DNA of 64,000 nucleotides from Polyangiaceae bacterium (lineage in GTDB: Bacteria > Myxococcota_A > Polyangia > Polyangiales > Polyangiaceae): the NCBI GenBank assembly GCA_025353725.1, contig JANXOF010000021.1, positions 20,945 to 84,944 on the forward strand, in the 5' to 3' direction. The translations under genes were made by a program, and so were the position numbers. The notes under the pieces were generated by a model. That model worked only from the letters and a program-made list of their open reading frames with translations, did no database searches and was not told the DNA's origin. The number at the start of each line of letters is the position of its first letter. The first letter of the stretch is position 1. Positions 2,165 through 27,095 of this stretch are shown here, piece after piece.

Positions 2165-4755
2165 CGCAGCAGGCCCTCGGCGTAGCGCTTCACGGCATCC
2201 CTCAAACGACTCCCGGACGATTGGCCCAAGCCTTTGATCACGCGCTTGCGAAACTCTTCCGGTCCCTTGTGCGCGTCCGCCTTCGGGATCGAAGCGTGAT
2301 CCGGTGAAAAGTTCCGGTCGGACTCTCCCTCCCCCCGCGGCGCGGCCTCGCCCTCACCGAGCGCCTCTTTCGCCGTCTCTAGTTTTTGTTGCGCCTCGCG
2401 TTGGCGCTGCAATCCCTTCTCTACATCGCCTTGTTTGAGGGCCTCCGCGGCCTCTTTCGCGGCTTGCTCAGCCGACGCAAGCGCCTCCAGCGCGGCGGCG
2501 GGCAACGCGTCTTCGTCCCGACCTTTTTTGCCAAGCTCACGCACCCGCTCCGCCAACTTGCTTTCCAGGTCGCCGTCTTCCCGAAGCGCCGCCGACGACT
2601 TGGCTGGCGACCGCTCGCGGACCTTTTCCCCCGCCGGATTCGCGTTCTTGTCGTGCTGACTTTCGGTCGCTTCGAGCGATTGTTCGACCTTTCCGACGTG
2701 GCTTGCGTGCTCCGAGGTAAGTTTGTCGAGCTCCTCCGACGCCTGGTTGAACGCCTGCTCGACCTCGCTTCCCTCGCCTTCTTCCGCATCGGGCGCGCCG
2801 CGACCTCCGCCCGATTCCCCTCCGGCATGAGAAGGGCGACCTCCGCGCGCCCCAAACGACGGATCCGGCTGACGCAAGCGCGCGGCGAGGTCTTGCGCGG
2901 CAAGTACCGCGTGCGGAAAGTCTGAAGCCGCCTGCGCGCGATCGACGCGCCGGAGATCCGTCTCGACGATTTCCCCTAGGTCACGACCGAGAGCTCCGAG
3001 TCTTTGCATGGCGCGCCCGCCGCCTGCGAGCACCCTCACGGCGGCTTGCATGCGCTCATGGCCGCCCGCGATTGACGTAGGTTTCTCGGCAAGCACGGCG
3101 GACGCAGCGAGGTCGTCGGCGACGTCCGCTAACTCTTTGGCCACGCCTCGGGTGTGCTTGACGCCCTGACCCCGGACGACGGCGTCCACCACGAGGACCA
3201 TGCGCTCGGTCGCCTTGACCACCGACGCTCTGGCTTGCGTGCTCGGCATCCGCGCTTGGGTAGCGACCGCGTCGTCCAGCTTTCGCATCCGTCCGCGAAG
3301 CCTCACGGCCAACCGACCCGGCACGCGAACGCCCGCGTACGAAGCCGAAAGCGTAGACTCAAGGAGCGTGTTTGCGTCGCGCCCGAAACGGGTTTCGCGG
3401 TCGAAAAACTCAGGTCGCTCGGCCGCTTTCGTCGGGAGACTGTGCGAAAGACGCCACGCGAGCTGGTCCACGAGCTCACCGCGGACGCCCGCGAGCGCTT
3501 CGAGCATCCGGGCCTCGGGCTCGCCGACATCCGGCGGAGCGATCGTGATCGCCGCGCTCGTGCCCCACTTGGGCCCCGTGATGGGATCGTTGTCTTTTGC
3601 CTCGACGCAAACGTCAATCGGCGCGTGACTTTTTCTTAGGAAAGGATCGTTTGCGTGAAGCATATAGCCGCCGCGATCGGCGCGCGTCTCGCCGTCGAGG
3701 TGTGCGAGAACGCGGCGCTCTTCGCGGAGTCCCGCGCGCAGCACGAGGTGCACTTCGCGCAGCCCATGGTCGTCGGTCGCCTCGTAGCGGAGCGGAATGT
3801 CCGCGGCGCTTTCGCGGTCCGCCAACGCCACTTGCGACGGGGCGCCCTCTAGCTTCACTTCGGGCGCGCGATCCGCGACCGATTCGATGGGCGTATCCTG
3901 CGCCTCGGGGATCACGACGTCAGTAAAGCGCGCGATCACGCGAACCGTCACGCTCCCCGCCAGGGGCCACCGCGCGACGACTTGACCAGTGCCATCCTCG
4001 ACAAACGGAACTTCACTCACGCCGTCCGTGAGAAGCAGCCGCCGCCCCGCGTGCACGGGAACGCCGCGCACGGTGAGAAGCGTGCCCCGAGGCAGCGACG
4101 CCTCTTCGTAAGCCAGAACGCGCCGCTCCTCCTGGTGGAGATACTCAGGCGGACGTGCGCGAATTTGAGGGTCCACGAGCCAGGCCATACCGACAGGCGC
4201 GAGGCCCCTTCGCGCGAGGAGAATATCGGCGCCTTCAAAAACCGCCCAAGGATTCGCCGCGCACGCACCCATATTCGCGATACCGAGGACAAGCGAGGAA
4301 ACCCCCAAATAGAACGCTAGACTCGAAGCCCGCCGAGCCACGCCGTCGCGCGGGAGTGCGTTGAGTGTACGCGTGACGTGCAGATCCGCGAGGGTCGCCG
4401 AAGCGCCGTGCGTCCCGCCCGAGCGGAGGAGCGAGAGCGCGCGAATGGCGCGATCCGCTCGTTCACGGTCGACGCGCCCAACGATGCGCTCGAGGATGCG
4501 CGCGGAGTCACGGAACGCCCGAGCCTCGAGCGCACGGTAAGTCACGACCGCGACGAGCATACTCAAAAGGACGACCACCGCACCGGCACGCGCGGGCGTC
4601 GTGCCCATCCGCGCGAGGAACATCGCGGCGGTCACCACGAGACACCCTGCAGCGACGGTCGTTCGTCGCCGTGGGGCACGCAAGGCGGCAACCCATGCGT
4701 CGCGGAGCGTGCGCAACGACTCCGGCAGAGGCTCGGGCAACGGCGGGGGCGTCAT
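2161..4755 (-). CDS. DUF4175-like membrane-anchored coiled-coil protein
   Basis: N-terminal TM helices, beta-rich middle with ATDDHGLREV and EAKDNDPITGP motifs, Q/E/G-rich coiled-coil tail ending RDAVKRYAEGLL, as in DUF4175-type proteins. Confidence 0.6.
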   Translation of the reverse strand: MTPPPLPEPLPESLRTLRDAWVAALRAPRRRTTVAAGCLVVTAAMFLARMGTTPARAGAVVVLLSMLVAVVTYRALEARAFRDSARILERIVGRVDRERADRAIRALSLLRSGGTHGASATLADLHVTRTLNALPRDGVARRASSLAFYLGVSSLVLGIANMGACAANPWAVFEGADILLARRGLAPVGMAWLVDPQIRARPPEYLHQEERRVLAYEEASLPRGTLLTVRGVPVHAGRRLLLTDGVSEVPFVEDGTGQVVARWPLAGSVTVRVIARFTDVVIPEAQDTPIESVADRAPEVKLEGAPSQVALADRESAADIPLRYEATDDHGLREVHLVLRAGLREERRVLAHLDGETRADRGGYMLHANDPFLRKSHAPIDVCVEAKDNDPITGPKWGTSAAITIAPPDVGEPEARMLEALAGVRGELVDQLAWRLSHSLPTKAAERPEFFDRETRFGRDANTLLESTLSASYAGVRVPGRLAVRLRGRMRKLDDAVATQARMPSTQARASVVKATERMVLVVDAVVRGQGVKHTRGVAKELADVADDLAASAVLAEKPTSIAGGHERMQAAVRVLAGGGRAMQRLGALGRDLGEIVETDLRRVDRAQAASDFPHAVLAAQDLAARLRQPDPSFGARGGRPSHAGGESGGGRGAPDAEEGEGSEVEQAFNQASEELDKLTSEHASHVGKVEQSLEATESQHDKNANPAGEKVRERSPAKSSAALREDGDLESKLAERVRELGKKGRDEDALPAAALEALASAEQAAKEAAEALKQGDVEKGLQRQREAQQKLETAKEALGEGEAAPRGEGESDRNFSPDHASIPKADAHKGPEEFRKRVIKGLGQSSGSRLRDAVKRYAEGLLR

Positions 4756-4778
4756 GCGATCAGCAAGAGGACGCTAGC

Positions 4779-6419
4779 TCATTGATTCTGCGGAGGCGAC
4801 GGCGAGGGCACGAAGAACGTAGGAAACCCGCTAGGAATCGGAAAGGTCGGAAAACCGCTCGGGAGCGGGAACGCGCTGGGAAATCCACTCGGAAACGCGG
4901 ACGGGAACGGAGGAAACGGACGCGTTGGCTCAACGCTACTCGAGGGCTTCGGCGCCGTGCTTCCCGACGGACGCGGTCGCGGCTGCGGCTGCGGCTGCGG
5001 CTGCAACGGAGGTTGATTCACTGGCGGGGCGAGCGTCAGCGGAGGCGCCACCGTGACTCGCGGACTTACCCCGCTCGATACGCTCGACGCGACCGTCACG
5101 GTCGTCGCCAGCGGGGGCGCGAACGGGTCCTCACTTGGCGCGGGCGAAGCTGTGCCGGCCACGTAAGCGGCAACGGCTCCCGCTCCCAGAAGGAGCGCGA
5201 CCACGGCGAGACCCACGACGAGGCCCGAACCGCCTTTTCTAGGTCGGGCCCGCGAAGGTGCGTTCGGAACGGAAGACGAAGGACTCGAAATGTAGCCCGC
5301 CGCGTACCCGACCGGAGCGCCGACTGACCTCAGCGCCGCCGGATCGCGTAGCGGCGCTTGAACGGTATGGCTCGCGAGCCGCGCCTCGACAACGTGAGGG
5401 ACCACGGGGCGGTCGCTCTGTCCAGAGGCCGCAAGGACGGACGCGGCAGGAGCGCCCATCACCGTTCCCGTGCCGAGAGGCGCCACGGCCGAAATCGCAC
5501 TAGGAATAGGTGAAAATGCGGCGCCGACCTGACCGAGCTTCGCCGTGCCCAAACGCGGATCCACGAGCGAGACCTCGAGTGCCATACGCATCGCCGCGGC
5601 CGACGGAAAGCGCATCGCCGCGCGCGGCGCCATCGCGCGGTGTACGAGACCCGCGACCTCAGGCCGTATTCCTGGCGCGACGTGAACGAGAGGTACAACC
5701 TCTCCTCGCTCGACCTTGAGCACAACGACGCGCGGGTCGTCGCCCTGGACGGGCGTTTGACCCGAAAGCATTTCGTAGAGCATCACTCCCACGGAATACA
5801 GATCCGCGCGAACATCGATATCTGCGGCGGAGTAAGCTTGCTCTGGTGCCATGTATTCGGCGGTACCCATGAGCATCCCTGCGACGGTAAGATTCTTCGC
5901 CGAAGGCCCTTGAGCGCCCTCTGCGCGCTTCAACTTCGCAATGCCAAAGTCGATAAGTTTGAGAACCGGCTTGCCGCCATCAAACGTGACAAAGACGTTA
6001 TCGGGCTTCAGGTCGCGATGAATCACGCCGAGCGCATGCGCCGCCTCGAGCGCTTGGAGAATCTGTCGCGCGTACTCGCAGGCCTGAGCCACTGGAAGCG
6101 CGCCTTCACGTTTTTCAACGGCAGAAAGCGCCTCTCCCTGCAAAAGCTCCATCACGAGGTAGGCAACGCCCTCGGGCGTCGCTTCTACGTCCGTCACTTG
6201 AACCACGTGCGGGCTTCGTATTTGAGCGGAAATCGAAGCCTCCTGAAGGAAGCGCTCGACGAGCCCCGAGCGCCTTGCGAGGTCGCTGTGAAGGACCTTG
6301 ATCGCAACACGCGTTCCTAAACGAAGGTGTTCAGCCTCGTAAACAGAGCCCATCCCGCCATCACCTAAAAGGCGCAGCAGCTTGTACTTCGAGCTTAGAA
6401 CTTGGCCGATGGCGACCAC
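4779..6419 (-). CDS. Hanks-type Ser/Thr protein kinase, single TM, Pro-rich extracellular tail
   Basis: LGDGGMGSVY, VAIK, HRDLKPDN, DFG, GTAEYMAPEQ, DLYSVG motifs; TM GLVVGLAVVALLLGAG. Confidence 0.95.
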   Translation of the reverse strand: MVAIGQVLSSKYKLLRLLGDGGMGSVYEAEHLRLGTRVAIKVLHSDLARRSGLVERFLQEASISAQIRSPHVVQVTDVEATPEGVAYLVMELLQGEALSAVEKREGALPVAQACEYARQILQALEAAHALGVIHRDLKPDNVFVTFDGGKPVLKLIDFGIAKLKRAEGAQGPSAKNLTVAGMLMGTAEYMAPEQAYSAADIDVRADLYSVGVMLYEMLSGQTPVQGDDPRVVVLKVERGEVVPLVHVAPGIRPEVAGLVHRAMAPRAAMRFPSAAAMRMALEVSLVDPRLGTAKLGQVGAAFSPIPSAISAVAPLGTGTVMGAPAASVLAASGQSDRPVVPHVVEARLASHTVQAPLRDPAALRSVGAPVGYAAGYISSPSSSVPNAPSRARPRKGGSGLVVGLAVVALLLGAGAVAAYVAGTASPAPSEDPFAPPLATTVTVASSVSSGVSPRVTVAPPLTLAPPVNQPPLQPQPQPQPRPRPSGSTAPKPSSSVEPTRPFPPFPSAFPSGFPSAFPLPSGFPTFPIPSGFPTFFVPSPSPPQNQ

Positions 6420-6851
6420 GAGAAGCGTCTTACCATAAGTCGTGCCCGGCTCGCGCGTTCATGCCGTGTGTGCAGATTCTTAAAGAGGCCGCCTGTCCAC
6501 GTCGAGGAGCGCAGAGGCCGTGTCGGCGTCCTCAATCGCGGCAAACATCGGAACGAGGCGTGCTTCGTCGCCCCCTCCGCCAAACGCGCCACTTGGTGAA
6601 AATGCGCGCGCTTGCGGGCCGTCAAGGACGAGAAAAAACCTTTGGACCCCCCGTCCAGAGAATCTCTTCGCCGTAAAAGGAATCGCGCGCCACGGAGTGC
6701 AGGGTGGCACCTCGTTCCCTGGCACGCCAGCGTGCCGAAACCGCCGTGGAAACGAAAAGGTAGTCCCTAGCGTACGCCCCGAGCGCCGCCGCCTTGCCTC
6801 AAGCCCCGCCTTTCCTGAAAGCGTGGCGAGGCATTAGCGTAATCTCTACAG

Positions 6852-20044: not shown

Positions 20045-21031
20045 CTACTTCGTAAACGCAAAAAACGCAGTGAACGCCACAGCCGCGACGGCGTTCATCG
20101 CTATACCTTCGAGCGCCGGTTGGTAAGCTAACGCGAGTCCGGAACGAAACCCCACGTCAGTTTTGAGGCTCGCACTCAAGCCTACGGAGCAAGACCTCTG
20201 CGCGCTCAACGTCGAGAGACGCCCGCCGTAACTCACGTCCGTCTCCGCGGCGAGGTCGACGAAGGCGCCGAAGGTAACGTCGCCCTCGAACACGATCCCC
20301 ATCACGCGCAGCAGGCCGCGAGGCCCGAGGGCGCGACGCAGGCCTACAGAATCGTCCGGCGCGCGCCATGCGCCTTCCATCACCGCTCCGAGCTGATAGC
20401 GCTGCGCAAACGTCTTTCGAACATCGATGGCCAGCGCGACTTCGGTCGTACCGAGACCCTGACTCGTCGCGGTCGAGCCTACCGTCCCCGCACTCGGTCC
20501 GGCGCCGACATCGCCCGAACGATCGACACCTCCCGTGGGAAGACGAACCGACAACGTAACGCCGAGCGACGGCCGGCGAGAGCCATGGGGAAGGTCGATT
20601 GCAGGCTCGACAAGCGCCTCCCAACGCACCCGCAGGCCGAGATCGCCGAGCGCAGCCCGATCACTGTGAAACGACGGTCCACCCACGGCTACGTGACCAA
20701 ACGCGGACGTGGCCTCTACCTCAAGAACCTCAAACGGTCGGTAAGAAAGCGCCCCCGCGACCTCCATCACGCGGTCGTAGCTCGAAGGCCCGAAGCCGCG
20801 ATAGCGACCTCCCGTGTCGAACACACCGTGCCCAAGTCGCATCGTTTGCGCGAGGGAGGCGCCCCAGGTCTGCCCGGGCGCGGTGAGCGCCGAGCCCGCA
20901 CCTCCTGGCCCACGGCACGAGCCGCACGCGCCCGCGGGTGACGCGGAAATGATCACGAAGCTTGACGCAGAAAGAGCGAGCGCCAGTCGGAGGTGCACAA
21001 GAATCGCGTACTCTGAATGGCGCTCGCGCAT
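20045..21031 (-). CDS. Putative outer-membrane beta-barrel (MetA-pathway/transporter-like) with mature N-terminal CxxC
   Basis: Signal peptide ending PAGA followed by CGSC; amphipathic strands (GDLGLRVRWE, LGVTLSVRLPTG); terminal aromatic FAFTK. Confidence 0.6.
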   Translation of the reverse strand: MRERHSEYAILVHLRLALALSASSFVIISASPAGACGSCRGPGGAGSALTAPGQTWGASLAQTMRLGHGVFDTGGRYRGFGPSSYDRVMEVAGALSYRPFEVLEVEATSAFGHVAVGGPSFHSDRAALGDLGLRVRWEALVEPAIDLPHGSRRPSLGVTLSVRLPTGGVDRSGDVGAGPSAGTVGSTATSQGLGTTEVALAIDVRKTFAQRYQLGAVMEGAWRAPDDSVGLRRALGPRGLLRVMGIVFEGDVTFGAFVDLAAETDVSYGGRLSTLSAQRSCSVGLSASLKTDVGFRSGLALAYQPALEGIAMNAVAAVAFTAFFAFTK

Positions 21032-21037
21032 AGGCCG

Positions 21038-21430
21038 TCAGGGAACATCGACAGCGAGGAGAGCCTCGTCCTCGCGGCCGTCGAGACGGAAGCGGAGACG
21101 CAGTTCCCAGCGGCCCGACATGTAAAGCACAAGGTGACTCACTCGGTAACCGCCCACGGCGCGTTCGACCGTAGGCGGCTTCGAGCCATGTCCGTGAGCC
21201 GGCATCAGCGCAGAAACATCGAGAAGTTCTGCCCCCGCGCTCGCAGGAAACGAGACAGCAAGCTCGTTTTGACCGAGCTGAATCGGATGCATCGTGCTCA
21301 CGGCCAAGCCGTTCAAGTCGCGGGACTGAACGCGAACAGATCCGTCTCGAAGCTCGGGCAAGCGCACCTCCTCGCTCGCGCTACAAGCCGCCACTATCGT
21401 GCATAGTGCAAAGATATCGAACCGGCGCAT
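21038..21430 (-). CDS. YtkA/FixH-like Ig-fold lipoprotein
   Basis: Lipobox VAAC; SALMPAHGHG and LYMSGRWELRL motifs characteristic of YtkA-like domains. Confidence 0.75.
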   Translation of the reverse strand: MRRFDIFALCTIVAACSASEEVRLPELRDGSVRVQSRDLNGLAVSTMHPIQLGQNELAVSFPASAGAELLDVSALMPAHGHGSKPPTVERAVGGYRVSHLVLYMSGRWELRLRFRLDGREDEALLAVDVP

Positions 21431-21433
21431 GCG

Positions 21434-21799
21434 CTACTCTTTCGACGCGTCAGCGCCGGCGTCGCGAGCGGCGTCCCCGTCGCTTCCGGCGTCCTGCGGG
21501 CTCGTCATGGCCCCAGCGTCCGCACACAACGCGAGGCATCGAACTTTTTGAGCGGCGCACGGCTCATCGCTTACCGAATCGTGACCGAGCTCATGGCATT
21601 CGTGGAGCTCGCCCTCCCCGACGTCGAATTCGTGGCATGCCTCGGTAATGGCATTACATGACGGGTACGCGCTGGTGTGTCCCCCGGCTTCGTCGGAAGG
21701 AATGCGTACCGTGGCGGGCGGCGTCGTGGTTTTCGTCGAACAGGCGTAAAGTGCAGCGGCGGCTACGAACGTCGCAGCGCCAAAAAAAAGGCTTTTCAT
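21434..21799 (-). CDS. His/Cys-rich putative metal-binding lipoprotein
   Basis: GGAG SD 8 nt before ATG 21799; lipobox LYAC; core CNAITEACHEFDVGEGELHECHELGHDSVSDEPCAAQKVRCLALC. Confidence 0.7.
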   Translation of the reverse strand: MKSLFFGAATFVAAAALYACSTKTTTPPATVRIPSDEAGGHTSAYPSCNAITEACHEFDVGEGELHECHELGHDSVSDEPCAAQKVRCLALCADAGAMTSPQDAGSDGDAARDAGADASKE

Positions 21800-21893
21800 G
21801 AGATAAAACTCCAGGAGTGGCAAGTGCGCGCTTCGCGCCACACTGCCGTCACATCAAAAGCTCGAACATCGCGAGCACATCGACCGATGTCGG

Positions 21894-21920
21894 ATGCGTC
21901 GTATGCGTCGTATGCGTCGA
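21894..21920. repeat. 9-bp tandem repeat (ATGCGTCGT x2 + ATGCGTCGA)
   Basis: Read directly in the 21800-21937 intergenic spacer. Confidence 0.9.
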
Positions 21921-21937
21921 GCTGTGGAAAGGCTCCG

Positions 21938-22426
21938 TTACGCCAGCGCGCGTGGTGGAGGCAACTCGGGCCTTGGAGACCACTGGCTTCGACACGAAGC
22001 GAGTCTCGGGCGCGGTAGCCATGTCCCATCGGGTGCGACGAGCACGAAGGTCGACGGGAGAATCGCGGGAAGCGTCACACCCGCGGAGCTCGGATCGTTC
22101 GTCCCGCAACGACCGATGACGGTCGGCGCTCCGAAGGTCTCGACATCGTTCATCTCGGGAAAACAGAGCGGACACGCACAGTGGGCGTGGCCACCGCGCG
22201 TCTCACACGTGCACGAGTGCGCCGACGGGCCCGCGACCCCTACGGCCCTGGCGTACGCCGGGAACGCCGACCCGAACGCGAGCAGGAACGACAGCACGGC
22301 GACGAGGGTACTCAAAGCAAGCGCGGCAGTTCTCGACCGGGGACGCGGGGGGGTACGCCGACCTGCCTGAACCTGCGACCGGGTTGCCCGTCGCCTCTCT
22401 CGCGTATGTCGCGAACCGCTGACCAC
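21938..22426 (-). CDS. Exported Cys/His-rich leader-like protein (DUF2946/CruR/CutF-like architecture)
   Basis: Sec-type signal (…SAFPAYA), HSCTCETRGGHAHCACPLC metal motif, C-terminal SPRPELPPPR; first gene of the operon. Start uncertain. Confidence 0.6.
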   Translation of the reverse strand: MVSGSRHTRERRRATRSQVQAGRRTPPRPRSRTAALALSTLVAVLSFLLAFGSAFPAYARAVGVAGPSAHSCTCETRGGHAHCACPLCFPEMNDVETFGAPTVIGRCGTNDPSSAGVTLPAILPSTFVLVAPDGTWLPRPRLASCRSQWSPRPELPPPRALA

Positions 22427-22491: not shown

Positions 22492-23166
22492 GTGGGTCGT
22501 CCGTCTCCACTGCGTTCGTACGAGAGCCTGTGTCGTGACGTCGCGAATCGCTACAGCTCTCGACCCGCGCACTTCTACGTCCGTGCGAAGCTCTGGGTCG
22601 ATCCCGTTTCACGAACCCTCCATGAACTTGGCGAGCGCGAGTCCTACGACCGCGTGCTCGACGTTGGGTGCGGCCGGGGCCAAGTAAGTCTCATGCTCAG
22701 GGTCGCCGGCCTCGCGTCGAGCGTTCGCGGCGTCGATTGGGACGACGCCAAAATACGCCACGCGAAGGCGGCCGCCGTCGGCCTCGACCAGAGTGAGTTC
22801 GAACACGGGGACGTCCGCGACCGTGCGCTTCCGGCTGCCGACACCGTCCTGCTCGTCGATATTCTGCACTACTTGGGACGCGACGAGCAACACGCGCTGC
22901 TTCGCCGTGCAGCTCGCGCAGCCCGCAGCCGCATTCTCTTGCGCGACGTCGACCCCGAGCGCGGCGCCTCGAGTGCCTTCACCACGAGCTGGGAGCGACT
23001 GACGACGAAACTTGGCTATAACCAAGGCGAATGCGTGTCGCCGCAGCCATGCGACGAACTTGAACGTATACTCGACGCGGAAGGATTCGCCGTCACTCGG
23101 CAGCCGTGCGCGGCCTTCGGGCTATCCAACGCTCTCCTCGTCGCCCGTCGCGTCTCCCGAGGGTAG
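22492..23166 (+). CDS. Class I SAM-dependent methyltransferase
   Basis: VLDVGCGRG motif I, GVDWD, HGDVRD, DTVLLVDILHYL. Confidence 0.85.
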   Translation: MGRPSPLRSYESLCRDVANRYSSRPAHFYVRAKLWVDPVSRTLHELGERESYDRVLDVGCGRGQVSLMLRVAGLASSVRGVDWDDAKIRHAKAAAVGLDQSEFEHGDVRDRALPAADTVLLVDILHYLGRDEQHALLRRAARAARSRILLRDVDPERGASSAFTTSWERLTTKLGYNQGECVSPQPCDELERILDAEGFAVTRQPCAAFGLSNALLVARRVSRG

Positions 23167-24003
23167 CGCCTCCGCGTTCGCCTCCGCACGCGCGCCGAGA
23201 AGTACGCCTCGGTCGCCTAAATCGGAGAGAAGAGTCGCGGCGCCGCGAAGGACCAAATCATCGAGCGGGCATGCGGCTCGCGCGCACGCCGGCGCCATCG
23301 CCTCCGCCAGCGAGCGACCTTCGAGAAGCAGCTCGAGAAGAATCGATGCCAACGGCGTCAAGTCGAGGAAACGCGTGCAATGTGCACTGTCGCGATAGAC
23401 GAGCAAGTCTACCGCCCGCACTTCGGGCACGGCGGTGATGTCGCCGGCCTCGAGTTCGTGCACGGCCCACGCAAGATGCACGAGCACGTGCGGGTCCGCG
23501 AAAACCAAGCTCCGATCGGAGGTAACGTCGGCCAGTGAAGGAGGCGGCGCGGGCCGTGGCGCGGCTCCCATGGTGAAGTCGACGAGCTCGAACTCTGCGT
23601 AGTCCGCAAGCCACGCCGGAATCAAAGGATCGCGCCGCCACCCCGGCGCGCACCAACGGAGGAACTCACTCGGAACGTCGCGCAGGTGTGGCGTCCGTGG
23701 CCCCTTTTCGGCAAGAAACGCGTCGACAGAACGGTCAAACGCGCCGGGGGCATGCGCCTCGAGCCGCGCGCGCGTTCGCTCGAGCATCGCCCCGACCACG
23801 CTCACGATGTTGTGGCGCACGAGCTGCCTGTAGAGGCCCAGCCGTCGGGGCGCCGCAAGGATAGCGGCGGCGTCGTCCTCGGCCACGCGATGATGCGCGA
23901 GGTACGCGCCGAGATCTCCCGCGAGAGCCGCATCCGAGTGGCCGAAACAGGCGTCGGCCAAGAGCGCGTGCAGGCAACCCACGTCCGAAGCGAGACGCGT
24001 CAT
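23122..24003 (-). CDS. DUF2063-family MNIO partner protein (HvfC/BufC-like)
   Basis: ATGA-coupled to DUF692 gene; RRLGLYRQLVRHN, FLRW, WLADYAEFE, LLVYR motifs typical of DUF2063 partners. Confidence 0.8.
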   Translation of the reverse strand: MTRLASDVGCLHALLADACFGHSDAALAGDLGAYLAHHRVAEDDAAAILAAPRRLGLYRQLVRHNIVSVVGAMLERTRARLEAHAPGAFDRSVDAFLAEKGPRTPHLRDVPSEFLRWCAPGWRRDPLIPAWLADYAEFELVDFTMGAAPRPAPPPSLADVTSDRSLVFADPHVLVHLAWAVHELEAGDITAVPEVRAVDLLVYRDSAHCTRFLDLTPLASILLELLLEGRSLAEAMAPACARAACPLDDLVLRGAATLLSDLGDRGVLLGARAEANAEALPSGDATGDEESVG

Positions 24004-24941
24004 CGCGCGTACCTTGTCGCGTGCTCCGCGTCTGCGGTCGCACGCTCCGCGTCTGCGGTCGCACGCTCCCAAAGCGCCTTAATCGTAGCGACTTCGCGAA
24101 GGAGCGCGTCGAGTGGCGGAATCGCCTGGTCACGTTCGAGCAACACCGGGACCGGGCCGGTCACGCGGAGCGCGCGCTCGAGCAGCGAGAGCACGCCCTC
24201 GCAACAGTCGGACCCGTGCGTATCGACAATAAGCACGCCATCTCTCAGCGCGTCCGCGTGGGAGTAGGGCGTCGACGAAGGCGCGGGGCAAACCTTCCAG
24301 TCCGCTTCGGTAAACCAATCGTGCCCGGCCACGTGCATCTGCACGACGCGGTCGAGCGGAGCCGTGCGCAACCACTCATCGACGTCAAATCCGAAGTTTA
24401 CCGCATTCACGTACGCATTATTGATATCGAGCATGAGTCCGCAATCGGCTGCCTCGCACACGCGCGCGAGAAACTCGGCCTCACCCATCTCGCTCTTACC
24501 GGGATGCATGTAGAAGCTCACGTTCTCGATCGCGAGCGGCTTACCAATCGCGTCTTGTGCGCGCTGAATTCGCTCGGCGATACGTGTAACCTCAGACGTT
24601 TTGAACGGAATCGGTAATAGATCGTGCAAAACGACGCCGCCGAACGTGCTGAAACAGAGATGGTCGGAATGCCACGGGCTCTTCACGCGATCGAGAAACG
24701 ATGAGAGCTCGGTCAAGTAGTCCTCGCGAAGCGGGTCGACGCCACCGAGACTCATGGTCAGTCCGTGAGTGACCACGGGCCAGAGTGCCACCGTCCGCTC
24801 GAGCGCCTCATCGTAGTAGCCACCCCGCCCCATGTAGTTTTCAGGCGACACTTCGACGAAATCGAGCGCCGGCTGCGTCGCGAGCAGCTCGTCGATAAAG
24901 TCCCACCGCACTCCGAGTCCTACGCCGGAGAGACCCGTCAT
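24000..24941 (-). CDS. DUF692-family multinuclear non-heme iron oxidative enzyme (MNIO; MbnB/TglH/HvfB/BufB family)
   Basis: GVGLGVR, FVEVSPENY, HGLTMSLGG, WHSDHLC, HDLLP, AIENVS, LDINNAYVN, QMHVAGH, VDTHG, LLERD iron-ligand motifs. Confidence 0.95.
   Translation of the reverse strand: MTGLSGVGLGVRWDFIDELLATQPALDFVEVSPENYMGRGGYYDEALERTVALWPVVTHGLTMSLGGVDPLREDYLTELSSFLDRVKSPWHSDHLCFSTFGGVVLHDLLPIPFKTSEVTRIAERIQRAQDAIGKPLAIENVSFYMHPGKSEMGEAEFLARVCEAADCGLMLDINNAYVNAVNFGFDVDEWLRTAPLDRVVQMHVAGHDWFTEADWKVCPAPSSTPYSHADALRDGVLIVDTHGSDCCEGVLSLLERALRVTGPVPVLLERDQAIPPLDALLREVATIKALWERATADAERATADAEHATRYAR
24016..24069. repeat. 21-bp tandem repeat (~2.5 copies) at the 3' end of the MNIO gene
   Basis: GTCGC(GT/AC)GCTCCGCGTCTGCG repeated; encodes ERATADA ERATADA EHAT. 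Confidence 0.85.
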
Positions 24942-25039
24942 GCGAAACCCGCCACGCGAGTGAGCGGCTGACACACCGCGACGTTCATCCTGGTTTTATT
25001 CGTCATCATCGCTATCAGGCGAACAGTATAGAACGAACA

Positions 25040-25071
25040 AAGGCCAGGCCCCGTGAAGAAGACCTGGCCTT
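25040..25071 (-). terminator. Putative intrinsic terminator/attenuator between precursor and MNIO genes
   Basis: Perfect 9-bp inverted repeat AAGGCCAGG (25040-48) / CCTGGCCTT (25063-71), 14-nt loop; on the minus strand followed by U-rich UUUGUUCGUUCU. Confidence 0.5.
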
Positions 25072-25139
25072 ATACGTTCCATGGAAGGCTGAGACTCGCT
25101 TTACGAGCTAGACCTCACGCGGCGTTCGTCGAAAACGAA

Positions 25140-25562
25140 CTACTTCTTCGCGCTGCAGGTCCCGGCTCCACAGCTACCCGAACCACCTTTTTTCGCGGGC
25201 GTCGCGGGGGTTGCAGGCGTCGCGGGCTTCTTCGCTGCGGCGGCAGCCGCGGCGGGTGTCGGGGTTGCGGCGACCGCTGACTTCACGTCCGCGGCTTTCG
25301 TGTCGACCGTCGTCGGCACTGGGGTCGAGGCCGTAGACGGCGTTGACGTCGCAGGCTCAACCGCCTTCGCGGCCTTGTCAGCGGAGCACGCAGCTTCACC
25401 CGCCTTGTGCGTGGCGTCTGAAGCCTTTTCGGTGGCGCCGGAAACCTCGTTCGCGTTGACGGGGGTTTTGGGCTCTTCACCGCCGCAGGCGGCCATGATG
25501 ACACCGGTACCGAGAACGGCGAGCGCCGCGGCGATTTTCTCAAAAGATAGATTCGGACGCAT
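25140..25562 (-). CDS. Lipoprotein precursor for MNIO modification (oxazolin/bufferin-like)
   Basis: AAGGAG SD 8 nt before ATG 25562; lipobox MAAC (Cys26); GEAACS motif, long Ala/Pro/Thr/Lys linker, C-terminal GGSGSCGAGTCSAKK; immediately upstream of DUF692-DUF2063. Confidence 0.8.
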   Translation of the reverse strand: MRPNLSFEKIAAALAVLGTGVIMAACGGEEPKTPVNANEVSGATEKASDATHKAGEAACSADKAAKAVEPATSTPSTASTPVPTTVDTKAADVKSAVAATPTPAAAAAAAKKPATPATPATPAKKGGSGSCGAGTCSAKK

Positions 25563-25823
25563 CCCTATCACTCCTTGCTAATGACGATTGGGCGCAACTT
25601 GAATCACGCCGTTTGCTCTGCGAGTCGGTTGCCCGCTCGGCGACTAGAACCGTATCACGCGTATCACGTCCACGAACGCAATCAACACTGAGCTTCGCGC
25701 GCACTGTACGGACGATTAAACGCCCCTTTCCGTACGCGCGCCTACGGCGTCGCCTTACCATTGTCCGCCGACTTCGTAGCTTCGGAGCGGTCTACGCGGC
25801 GGCGTGAGGACAAGTTTCGGCGT

Positions 25824-27095
25824 TCAACTCTTTTCTTGTTCGAGGCTCTCCCGATTTCGAAGACTCCGCGCTTTTGTGCTTCGAATACGCGCCGCGAGCG
25901 CGGGCGGCGCGAGTAAGGTCGTCGCAAAAACCGCCGCGACGAGTGCAGAGTACACTCCGGGAGAAAGCAGCGGTATGCCCCCCGGTGCGATGCGCGTTCC
26001 GACATCCGCAAAGATAAGCCCCACTTCCCCACGCGGGACCATTCCAAAACCAACAGTAAGCCTGTCCAGGTTCTTGCCTCGGGCACCGAAACCGGCGGCG
26101 ACTTTACCGCCAATGGCCGTCGCGACCAGTGCGCTCGCCAAGGCAAGTGTTCCGCCGTCGAGGCCACTCAGCTTTACGCTCATCCCCGTGCGCACGAAAA
26201 AGACGGGAGCGAAAACGGCCGCGATGGGAGCGACGAAGGCTTCCACGTGTTGGACGCCCGTAGCGTCTTTGTCGTTGAACGGGGCCACGCTTACGTCGTC
26301 GAGCAAAAGACCGGCGGCGTAGGCTCCCACGATCGCGGCAAGGCCTGACGCCGCACTCGCTCCAGCCACGAGGAGGCAGGCGGCCACGGACAACGCACCG
26401 AGCACGTAGGGCGTGCGAAGCGACGACGCGAGACGGTAGACGCGACCGAATAAAAGCGTACCGAACGCTATAGCCCCGACCACGAAGGCCAAGGCCGTTC
26501 CCGTAATGCGCGCGAGTGTCGCGGGGGCCGGCATTCCGCCGCCGGTCATGGCAATAGCGGAGACAATAGCAAGAACAAGCAGCCCGAGAATGTCATCGAT
26601 GACCGCGGCGCCGAGGATCATCTTCGCTTCCTCGCTGCCGAGCGCGCCGACGTCCTTCAACACACTCGCGGTAATGCCGACGCTCGTGGCGCACATCGTG
26701 GCACCGACGAAGAGATGAACGGCAGGCGTCGCGTGAGGAAGGAGCCACGTGCTTGCGCCGAAGCCAAGAGCACTCGGAAGGATCACGCCGAGCGAGGCCA
26801 CCCCACCCGCACGCACGGCGATCTTCGCCATCTCGCGAAGACTCGATTCGAGTCCGACCTGGAAGAGCAAGAGCATGACTCCGAGCTCGGCCGCGAACGT
26901 CAGCTCCGGCCCTTTCGCAAGTCTCGCAAGACCCTCAAAAGGAAGGTTTCCGAGGAGCACGCCCACGGCGAGCTCGCCGAGCACGGAGGGCTGCCGGAGT
27001 CGCCGTGCGGCTTCCCCGCCGAGCTTCGCGGCGAGGATAAGCAACGCAAGGGCGAACCACGTGTGCGCTGCGACCCCGTGCTCCACGCGTGGCAA
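25824..27095 (-). CDS. Cation:proton antiporter (CPA2/Na+/H+ exchanger family)
   Basis: About 12 TM helices; PSVLGEL, LLFQVGLE, ATSVGIT, AAVIDDILG, PVFFV, GMVPRGEVG motifs. Confidence 0.9.
   Translation of the reverse strand: MPRVEHGVAAHTWFALALLILAAKLGGEAARRLRQPSVLGELAVGVLLGNLPFEGLARLAKGPELTFAAELGVMLLLFQVGLESSLREMAKIAVRAGGVASLGVILPSALGFGASTWLLPHATPAVHLFVGATMCATSVGITASVLKDVGALGSEEAKMILGAAVIDDILGLLVLAIVSAIAMTGGGMPAPATLARITGTALAFVVGAIAFGTLLFGRVYRLASSLRTPYVLGALSVAACLLVAGASAASGLAAIVGAYAAGLLLDDVSVAPFNDKDATGVQHVEAFVAPIAAVFAPVFFVRTGMSVKLSGLDGGTLALASALVATAIGGKVAAGFGARGKNLDRLTVGFGMVPRGEVGLIFADVGTRIAPGGIPLLSPGVYSALVAAVFATTLLAPPALAARIRSTKARSLRNRESLEQEKS

Follow-up and report, generated by a model that had tools for sequence, protein, structure and literature searches.

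The window analysed here is a stretch of 64,000 nucleotides from the genome of a Polyangiaceae bacterium (assembly GCA_025353725.1, contig JANXOF010000021.1) that falls in the GTDB genus to which Labilithrix luteola DSM 27648 also belongs. Three genes on its minus strand encode a 140-residue lipoprotein, an MNIO (DUF692) enzyme and a DUF2063-type partner. We consider it likely that they form an operon of the bufferin/oxazolin/'captophorin' type with the lipoprotein as substrate, a candidate 'DAG-RiPP' (RiPP, a peptide made by the ribosome and modified after translation) that would carry a lipid-anchored thiooxazole copper site. A first-pass annotation had described a 140-residue open reading frame (ORF) and coupled DUF692 and DUF2063 genes across 23122-25562, and all of these elements were found at those positions on the minus strand, as follows.

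25571-25576, minus strand: ribosome-binding site AAGGAG, 8 nucleotides 5' of the precursor ATG at 25562 (from sequence)
25140-25562, minus strand: precursor gene, encoding the 140-residue lipoprotein and candidate MNIO substrate (stop codon 25140-25142, ATG at 25562)
25488-25562, minus strand: predicted signal peptide, residues 1-25, MRPNLSFEKIAAALAVLGTGVIMAA (from family conservation and an AlphaFold2 helix)
25485-25496, minus strand: lipobox M-A-A-C with Cys26 as predicted lipidation site, followed by Gly-Gly (PROSITE PS51257 by inspection)
25443-25463, minus strand: PVNANEV motif, residues 34-40, at the mature N-terminus (family consensus)
25383-25400, minus strand: single internal GEAAC59S motif (alignment of relatives)
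25188-25382, minus strand: Ala/Pro/Thr/Lys-rich stalk, residues 61-125 (composition, AlphaFold2)
25143-25187, minus strand: C-terminal core GGSGSC131GAGTC136SAKK, with CGAGTC at 25155-25172 (conservation)
25040-25071, minus strand: hairpin of 13 bp, rich in GC and with TGTTCGTTCT after it, within the precursor-MNIO spacer (terminator-like scan)
24000-24974, minus strand: MNIO (DUF692) gene, 324 residues, GTG start with an alternative ATG at 24941 (PF05114)
24000-24003, minus strand: ATGA overlap of MNIO stop and partner start (from sequence)
23122-24003, minus strand: DUF2063-type partner gene (PME type 1, HvfC/BufC-like), 293 residues (PF09836 and PF22106)

The ATGA overlap translationally couples the two enzyme genes, and the same 4-nucleotide overlap between MNIO and partner is found in L. 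luteola. Past the partner gene the operon is bounded by a methyltransferase gene on the opposite strand. At the other end, the precursor had been placed directly upstream of the DUF692 gene; it is indeed the next gene upstream but does not abut, a spacer of 165 nucleotides with a strong hairpin lying between the two.

The precursor opens with MRPNLSFEKIAAALAVLGTGVIMAA, continues from the lipobox as C26GGEEPKTPVNANEV, carries GEAAC59S further on and ends in KKGGSGSC131GAGTC136SAKK, and its only Cys residues are the four at positions 26, 59, 131 and 136. Residues 16-26 (VLGTGVIMAAC) match the PROSITE PS51257 lipobox rule by inspection, with R2 and K9 in the n-region, so that the precursor combines, within a RiPP cluster, the signal peptidase II (SPII) type signal and lipobox Cys by which DAG-RiPPs are recognized. 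It also shows the arrangement sought in captophorin and bufferin clusters, a Cys-containing precursor with an export signal immediately upstream of an MNIO gene, and that of the published 'Cluster X' lipoproteins, a lipoprotein signal and a CxxxxC motif (here C131-GAGT-C136) beside an MNIO. The repeated EGKCG 5-mers of oxazolins (Buf_EGKCG) are missing, the Cys contexts beyond the lipobox being GEAAC and GSCGAGTC only; neither EGKCG nor CPxCG occurs in the window precursor. The first-pass description of a lipobox MAAC with Cys26, one internal GEAACS, a long linker and three Cys beyond the lipobox was thus accurate, and its claim of a different core is borne out both by the lack of EGKCG and by the presumed specificity residues of the enzyme, which differ too (see below).

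Between residues 27 and 125 the precursor consists to 79% of Ala, Pro, Thr, Ser, Gly and Lys. AlphaFold2, given a 45-sequence alignment, placed a helix at residues 6-24 and no secondary structure beyond residue 24, with pLDDT (predicted local distance difference test) block means of 42-69 and a predicted template modelling score (pTM) of 0.19, and no model of the C-terminal head was obtained; this supports the prediction of disorder in the mature chain. Pfam and NCBIfam returned nothing meaningful for the window precursor or for four repeat-rich relatives, even at E-values up to 10.

Relatives were collected by a scan for the MNIO protein in one genome per species. This found 203 relatives, the best 80 of which were used; 71 loci had enough upstream DNA for comparison of the precursor, and 64 members were aligned. 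The best 80 MNIO relatives are all labelled Myxococcota, Polyangiaceae, Labilithrix or older names of these groups. Of the 71 related Polyangia loci, 63 have a lipoprotein gene of the same build immediately 5' of the MNIO gene and co-oriented with it, and a lipobox precursor holds this place even where enzyme identity has fallen to 46%. Such recurrence of gene order and motifs goes far beyond chance.

Conservation of the lipobox among homologous loci had been set beforehand as a test of the proposal, as had that of the C-terminal Cys motif, and both turned out to be conserved. The lipobox Cys is present in 64 of 64 members and is preceded in all 64 by Ala, Gly or Ser at the −1 position (Ala in 88%), with C-G-G in 57 of 64. 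Of the 64 members, 62 carry C-x-x-G-x-C in the tail and 57 have the exact CGAGTC; C131, G132, G134 and C136 are near-invariant, and A133 and T135 are at least 90% conserved. The signal peptide follows the consensus MRPNLSxExIAxxLAvLGT, in which L5, S6, L14, A15, L17 and G18 are conserved at 89-100%. Such conservation is unusual for a signal peptide, and the ATG start in the window yields MRPNLS, the conserved N-terminus of the family. The motif at the mature N-terminus has the consensus P(94%)-V-x-A(73%)-x-E-V and also occurs in the published Cluster X sequences.

Internal Cys residues number from 0 to 7 per member and are lacking in 16 of the 64. They occur in GEGGCGA, GEGSCGG and DGEAGSCGA repeats, and also as EGGCGA, AGSCGA and EGSCGG; the GEGxCG repeats of relatives resemble EGKCG and stand beside the same tail. 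Every non-lipobox Cys is followed by Gly, Ser or Ala (163, 63 and 18 instances, respectively), which fits the preference for small residues measured for FonBC. Because the terminal CGAGTC is constant and the internal Cys are variable, we regard CGAGTC as the core of the family and the GEAAC of the window as a remnant of optional repeats. No other Cys-containing small ORF is conserved across the related loci. Clustering of neighbouring ORFs over the 80 loci did not bring out another conserved partner (a protease or DoxX, for example); its output was dominated by spurious GC-rich antisense frames.

A large protein collection was searched with the single sequence, which gave 102 homologues, and with a profile, which gave at least 176 protein clusters. 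The tail motif is found in 98 of the 102, in 94 of these at the same 10 residues from the C-terminus, and no database homologue carries a Pfam domain or a meaningful name. The orthologous precursor of L. luteola DSM 27648 (locus L006, 3393-3845) is labelled 'Transcriptional regulator' in public records, evidently a mis-annotation. In searches of whole genomes, a strong and essentially full-length precursor match was obtained in 25 of 28 genomes of the window's GTDB genus, where the L. luteola DSM 27648 match has the coordinates of locus L006, and in four of nine other genera of the family; 24 genomes from other families of the order gave no full-length match.

The window MNIO belongs to the DUF692 family, matching PF05114 with 302.2 bits (3.8e-90; cut-off 25) over model positions 1-261 of 263. 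Its metal-site motifs are intact (H70, H105, E150, D183/N186, H214/H218/D219, D251/H253 and E280), and the HG, DH, EN, DxNN, HxxGHD, DxH and ERD motifs between residues 70 and 281 are identical to the aligned residues of 3BWW; the assignment of these motifs as iron ligands rests on published work on MbnB and HvfB. 3BWW is also the closest solved structure to the MNIO (9.5e-52), as 3DEE is to the partner (2.2e-4), and the two are cited as the MNIO and type 1 partner structures of the captophorin class. The partner matches both PF09836 (DUF2063; 35.9 bits, 9.1e-9, cut-off 27.2) and PF22106 (NGO1945_C; 45.1 bits, 1.3e-11, cut-off 27), and therefore has, next to an MNIO, the DUF2063 and NGO1945-type C-terminal domains that characterize PME type 1. 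At the level of NCBIfam equivalogs, the MNIO scored 272.5 bits against BufB (NF050167; cut-off 310) and 272 against HvfB (NF003818; cut-off 360), and the partner 98.8 bits against HvfC (NF050145; cut-off 142). Since these models were matched without their cut-offs being reached, the enzyme pair is a relative of the studied systems and not an orthologue of any of them. The ChrH model gave 57 bits (cut-off 600) and the MbnB model only 53.

Work on FonB has indicated that Arg15/Arg16 and Asp249/Phe250 read the residues around the target Cys, with Phe replaced by Asp in 'Cys-Lys' enzymes. Through 3BWW (GYRRD ... ERDF) these pairs appear to map to Arg23-Trp24 and Asp281-Gln282 of the window MNIO. 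Arg-Trp is found in 73 of the 80 MNIO relatives and Asp-Gln or Asp-Asn in 66 of the 80, a pattern that would fit a clade adapted to a core without Glu and Lys. Outside the Pfam domain, the 3' end of the MNIO gene contains a perfect 21-nucleotide direct repeat (24021-24062) that duplicates ERATADA in the C-terminal tail.

Later work has revised the structure of oxazolin to 5-thiooxazoles and proposed captophorins as the class name for products of MNIO-PME1 pairs, and every such pair tested so far installs 5-thiooxazoles. If the window operon acts in the same way, the MNIO-partner complex would recognize the nascent precursor in the cytoplasm via the conserved signal peptide and the PVxAxEV stretch. 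The signal peptide, given its conservation, probably doubles as a recognition (leader) element, and we infer that the PVNANEV motif takes part in enzyme recognition. Cys131 and Cys136, and perhaps Cys59, would then be oxidized to 5-thiooxazoles, a group that absorbs at about 305 nm, with a loss of about 4 Da each, so that two thiooxazoles on the C-terminal fragment ...GGSGSCGAGTCSAK would amount to −8 Da, and to −12 Da overall with Cys59. The modified precursor would next be exported by Sec, acylated at Cys26 by Lgt and cut by LspA, giving a lipid-anchored flexible stalk of about 114 residues that ends in a small metal site made of two rings. Most likely this site would bind copper and act as a copper buffer in the cell envelope; the choice of metal follows the analogy with bufferins, oxazolin, fontiphorin and NedA.

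The order of these steps, cytoplasmic modification before Sec export and lipidation, had been proposed in the first-pass annotation and is well supported. An N-terminal hydrophobic signal is absent from both the MNIO and the partner sequences, and modification must therefore precede export. The same genome encodes Lgt (three matches, best 164 bits) and LspA (122 bits), the host pathway expected for a DAG-RiPP, and the sequence of modification, Sec export and lipidation has been shown experimentally for NedA/NedBC and DybA/DybH (PMC13056109).

Some observations weigh against a copper-binding captophorin. Neither enzyme reaches its equivalog cut-offs (BufB and HvfB for the MNIO, HvfC for the partner), so their chemistry could differ. 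DoxX and the extracytoplasmic function (ECF) sigma/anti-sigma pair, which are common in bufferin clusters, are not among the adjacent genes scanned with Pfam and NCBIfam, and metal-related neighbours adjoin the operon in only about four of about 18 close relatives.

The scores below the BufB and HvfB cut-offs count in favour of an MNIO that acts on the C-terminal CxxxxC by other chemistry, such as a ChrH/DybH-like macrocycle or heterocycle joining both Cys, excision of a β-carbon or another cross-link, in which case the head would not be a thiooxazole copper site. The core is indeed unlike that of every characterized substrate, its two Cys, spaced by four residues, standing at the very end of the chain with no Glu or Lys around them; the positions mapped to Arg16 and Phe250 of FonB are Trp and Gln/Asn in the window clade; and ChrH-type enzymes likewise target a two-Cys C-terminal motif. 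However, ChrH-type enzymes carry a fused C-terminal helical domain and have no DUF2063 partner, and the window MNIO falls far short of the ChrH model. The partner present here is of PME type 1, for which thiooxazoles are the uniform outcome in the pairs tested so far, and EGKCG-like repeats adjoin the same tail in relatives. We therefore consider other chemistry unlikely.

A second alternative accepts the modification and concerns the fate of the product: the lipid-anchored form might be an intermediate, or the system might serve copper acquisition and not buffering, with the head released or its metal handed to neighbouring lipoproteins or a putative outer-membrane barrel. The neighbours in question are four co-oriented genes downstream of the operon (20045-22426, minus strand).

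within 20045-22426, minus strand: Cys/His-rich exported protein (HSCTC...HAHCACPLC)
within 20045-22426, minus strand: His/Cys-rich lipoprotein
within 20045-22426, minus strand: weak YtkA-like lipoprotein (MPAHGHG)
within 20045-22426, minus strand: 328-residue signal-bearing protein, possibly a barrel

In favour of this alternative, Lys-Lys pairs lie on both sides of the core (KKGGSGSCGAGTCSAKK). Only one convergent methyltransferase gene separates the two gene sets in the window, and in L. luteola (77 nucleotides downstream) and two metagenome-assembled genomes the Cys/His-rich set comes next after the partner gene in the same orientation. Yet among 15 close relatives, seven lack this gene set within 10 kb and four more have it at a distance of 7-9 kb, the conserved unit contains no protease gene, and the characterized relatives protect from copper excess, so that release or acquisition seems quite improbable. 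Conserved synteny of the Cys/His-rich set with the operon was expected but rejected: direct adjacency was limited to the window and to L003/L087, L006 (L. luteola) and L012/L097, and because of this patchiness we take the set as no more than weak support for a role in metal handling. Convergent with the metal-related lipoprotein genes of L. luteola lies a gene for a multi-heme cytochrome c (L006 7778-8920, minus strand; four CxxCH, Cytochrome_C7-like).

That the 140-residue lipoprotein is merely a neighbour of the MNIO pair, like the BON-domain, LptM and TssQ lipoproteins beside other MNIO clusters, is very improbable: although the DAG-RiPP survey found several MNIO-adjacent lipoprotein families that are probably not substrates, and placed the L. 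luteola orthologue in its unclassified 'Other' bin, the precursor always lies immediately upstream of the MNIO on the same strand, in the position of bufA/hvfA, has no predicted fold, and has as its sole invariant residues beyond the signal peptide Cys/Gly motifs of the kind that MNIO enzymes modify, with no competing conserved Cys-containing small ORF at these loci.

A more far-reaching version of the captophorin reading can also be formulated. The CGAGTC-tail lipoproteins of Polyangia might form a captophorin subclass of their own, in which enzyme and substrate follow a separate code (Arg-Trp and Asp-Gln/Asn in the MNIO in place of Arg-Arg and Asp-Phe/Asp) and the lipoprotein signal peptide is the leader. 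The two terminal rings would make up a single methanobactin-like copper site on a long tether, which would pass copper to or from the neighbouring gene products (His/Cys-rich lipoprotein, YtkA-like lipoprotein and barrel). Such a tethered chalkophore would serve metal trafficking and not simple buffering, a scenario that we regard as speculative and doubtful.

Among described systems, the closest in build are the Cluster X lipoproteins and the L. luteola entry, which share with the window precursor the ACGG lipobox, PVNAxEV, a long Ala/Pro/Thr stalk with a Lys-rich end, a CG(A/Q)GTC terminus and an adjacent MNIO (PMC12636315; PMC13056109, Fig. 5). BLASTP of the window precursor against one Cluster X member gave E = 6e-7 with both ends covered. 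Cluster X differs in its signal peptide (MLSKKSIYETL...) and in having no internal Cys, whereas the window precursor has one internal GEAAC and a SAKK end. The NedA/NedB/NedC system is alike in its SPII-type precursor, MNIO and DUF2063 partner, and in NedABC modification occurs before export and the lipobox Cys is lipidated (PMC13056109). In contrast to NedA, a short chain with three EGKCG repeats, the window precursor has no EGKCG, a stalk of about 100 residues that is predicted to be disordered, and a terminal CGAGTC.

HvfABC of Haemophilus influenzae and the FonABC 'Lys-Cys' captophorins resemble the window system in the type of enzyme pair (3BWW, 3DEE), in the small residue past the Cys and in the GEGxCG repeats of the window's relatives (10.1101/2025.11.18.689057, 10.64898/2026.07.17.739211). 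Their precursors differ in being soluble, Sec-exported and furnished with 6-7 EGKCG sites, and the specificity positions of HvfB/FonB are Arg-Arg and Asp-Phe (as in 3BWW), compared with Arg-Trp and Asp-Gln/Asn in the window clade. Caulobacter BufABC(D) likewise combines an MNIO, a partner of PME type 1 and a precursor that bears a signal peptide, and in bufferins a few thiooxazoles form the copper site (PMC11626156; PMC12452194). Bufferins, however, have folded DUF2282 or 6/12-Cys domains and often DoxX and sigma/anti-sigma genes, whereas the window chain is predicted to be disordered and its operon is without those genes.

Methanobactin (MbnA/MbnBC) is also made by an MNIO and has two Cys-derived heterocycle/sulfur pairs a few residues apart that bind one copper, but its leader is cleaved off and the product is secreted as a small molecule that serves copper uptake; the partner, MbnC, is not a DUF2063 protein and the groups formed are oxazolone-thioamides. 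The ChrH/DybH (chryseobasin) type, defined by a fused C-terminal helical domain and a CPxCGxG core, does not accommodate the window system. We did not equate the window family with the 'CxxxxC' family of PMC12452194, whose 76 proteins have DoxX and Lactamase_B_2 neighbours, since both the accessions listed for that family and its gene context indicate another group.

The first-pass annotation knew of no described lipoprotein precursor for this class, a claim that the recent literature overturns. Most MNIO substrates have Sec signals, and about 16% of Buf2 bufferins are predicted to be lipoproteins (2025; PMC12452194). The DAG-RiPPs, described in a 2025 preprint and a 2026 PNAS paper, include the MNIO-modified and triacylated DybA, as well as NedA of Neisseria dentiae, an EGKCG peptide that is changed by −12 Da by NedBC (MNIO and DUF2063) and triacylated in E. 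coli (PMC13056109). Peptides of the oxazolin and chryseobasin types were isolated in lipidated form in 2025-2026. The DAG-RiPP authors mined all MNIO neighbourhoods for lipoproteins (PMC13056109), and the supplement of the preprint lists the L. luteola orthologue verbatim, in the 'Other' bin, together with the sister Cluster X lipoproteins, which have the CG(A/Q)GTC tail and are flagged as 'likely uncharacterized RiPP precursors' (PMC12636315). Since both the principle and a listing of the family were published in 2025-2026, novelty of kind cannot be claimed and the locus opens no new category.

Some useful new detail is added here, namely the minimal core, the conservation of a signal peptide that may serve as leader, two enzyme residues that form a distinct pair, and a hairpin that is conserved between the genes. 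MNIO and DUF2063 clusters are among the commonest bacterial peptide-modifying systems and are linked to copper stress. To these the locus adds a well-defined and conserved myxobacterial family, in which the core is reduced to a single C-terminal CGAGTC on what is predicted to be a disordered, lipid-anchored stalk. With a cultured relative at hand (L. luteola DSM 27648), the family is a convenient minimal model for the choice of Cys by the enzymes and for a lipoprotein signal peptide as leader.

The spacer between the precursor and MNIO genes folds more stably than shuffled sequences (z = −3.86). A hairpin of −28 to −43 kcal/mol, unrelated in sequence, was found in all 19 examined related loci with a spacer of at least 80 nucleotides, and it is thus kept in position and not in sequence. 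Rfam gave no match in 22900-25900 at E-values up to 0.1. The hairpin is a putative attenuator or stabilizer of the transcript 3' end, and it would probably yield more precursor transcript than enzyme transcript. A raised ratio of precursor to enzyme is common to many peptide-modification operons. One clade (L021-L045 and others, e.g. L021 4001-5692) is arranged differently: the partner gene is convergent with the MNIO gene rather than 3' of it, the precursor gene abuts the MNIO gene without a hairpin, and the precursor has the longer tail CGAGTCS.D.KKKIL.

Just 5' of the precursor gene lies a gene for a CPA2-type cation/proton antiporter (25824-27095, minus strand), which keeps this position in many loci of the Labilithrix clade (11 of 80; six of 16 sampled). 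This adjacency probably reflects plain synteny.

The source genome contains a second MNIO and DUF2063 pair (L083, G000:C98:46500-56500; 3327-6545). There, a 215-residue lipoprotein with lipobox LVGC and a heme-type CASCH motif near its C-terminus is followed by an MNIO (303 bits), a DUF2063 protein and a 338-residue protein without an assigned function. Neighbouring genes abut or overlap, with the lipoprotein ORF ending 2 nucleotides short of the stretch that matches the MNIO (3977-4795) and a 4-nucleotide overlap at each of the last two junctions.

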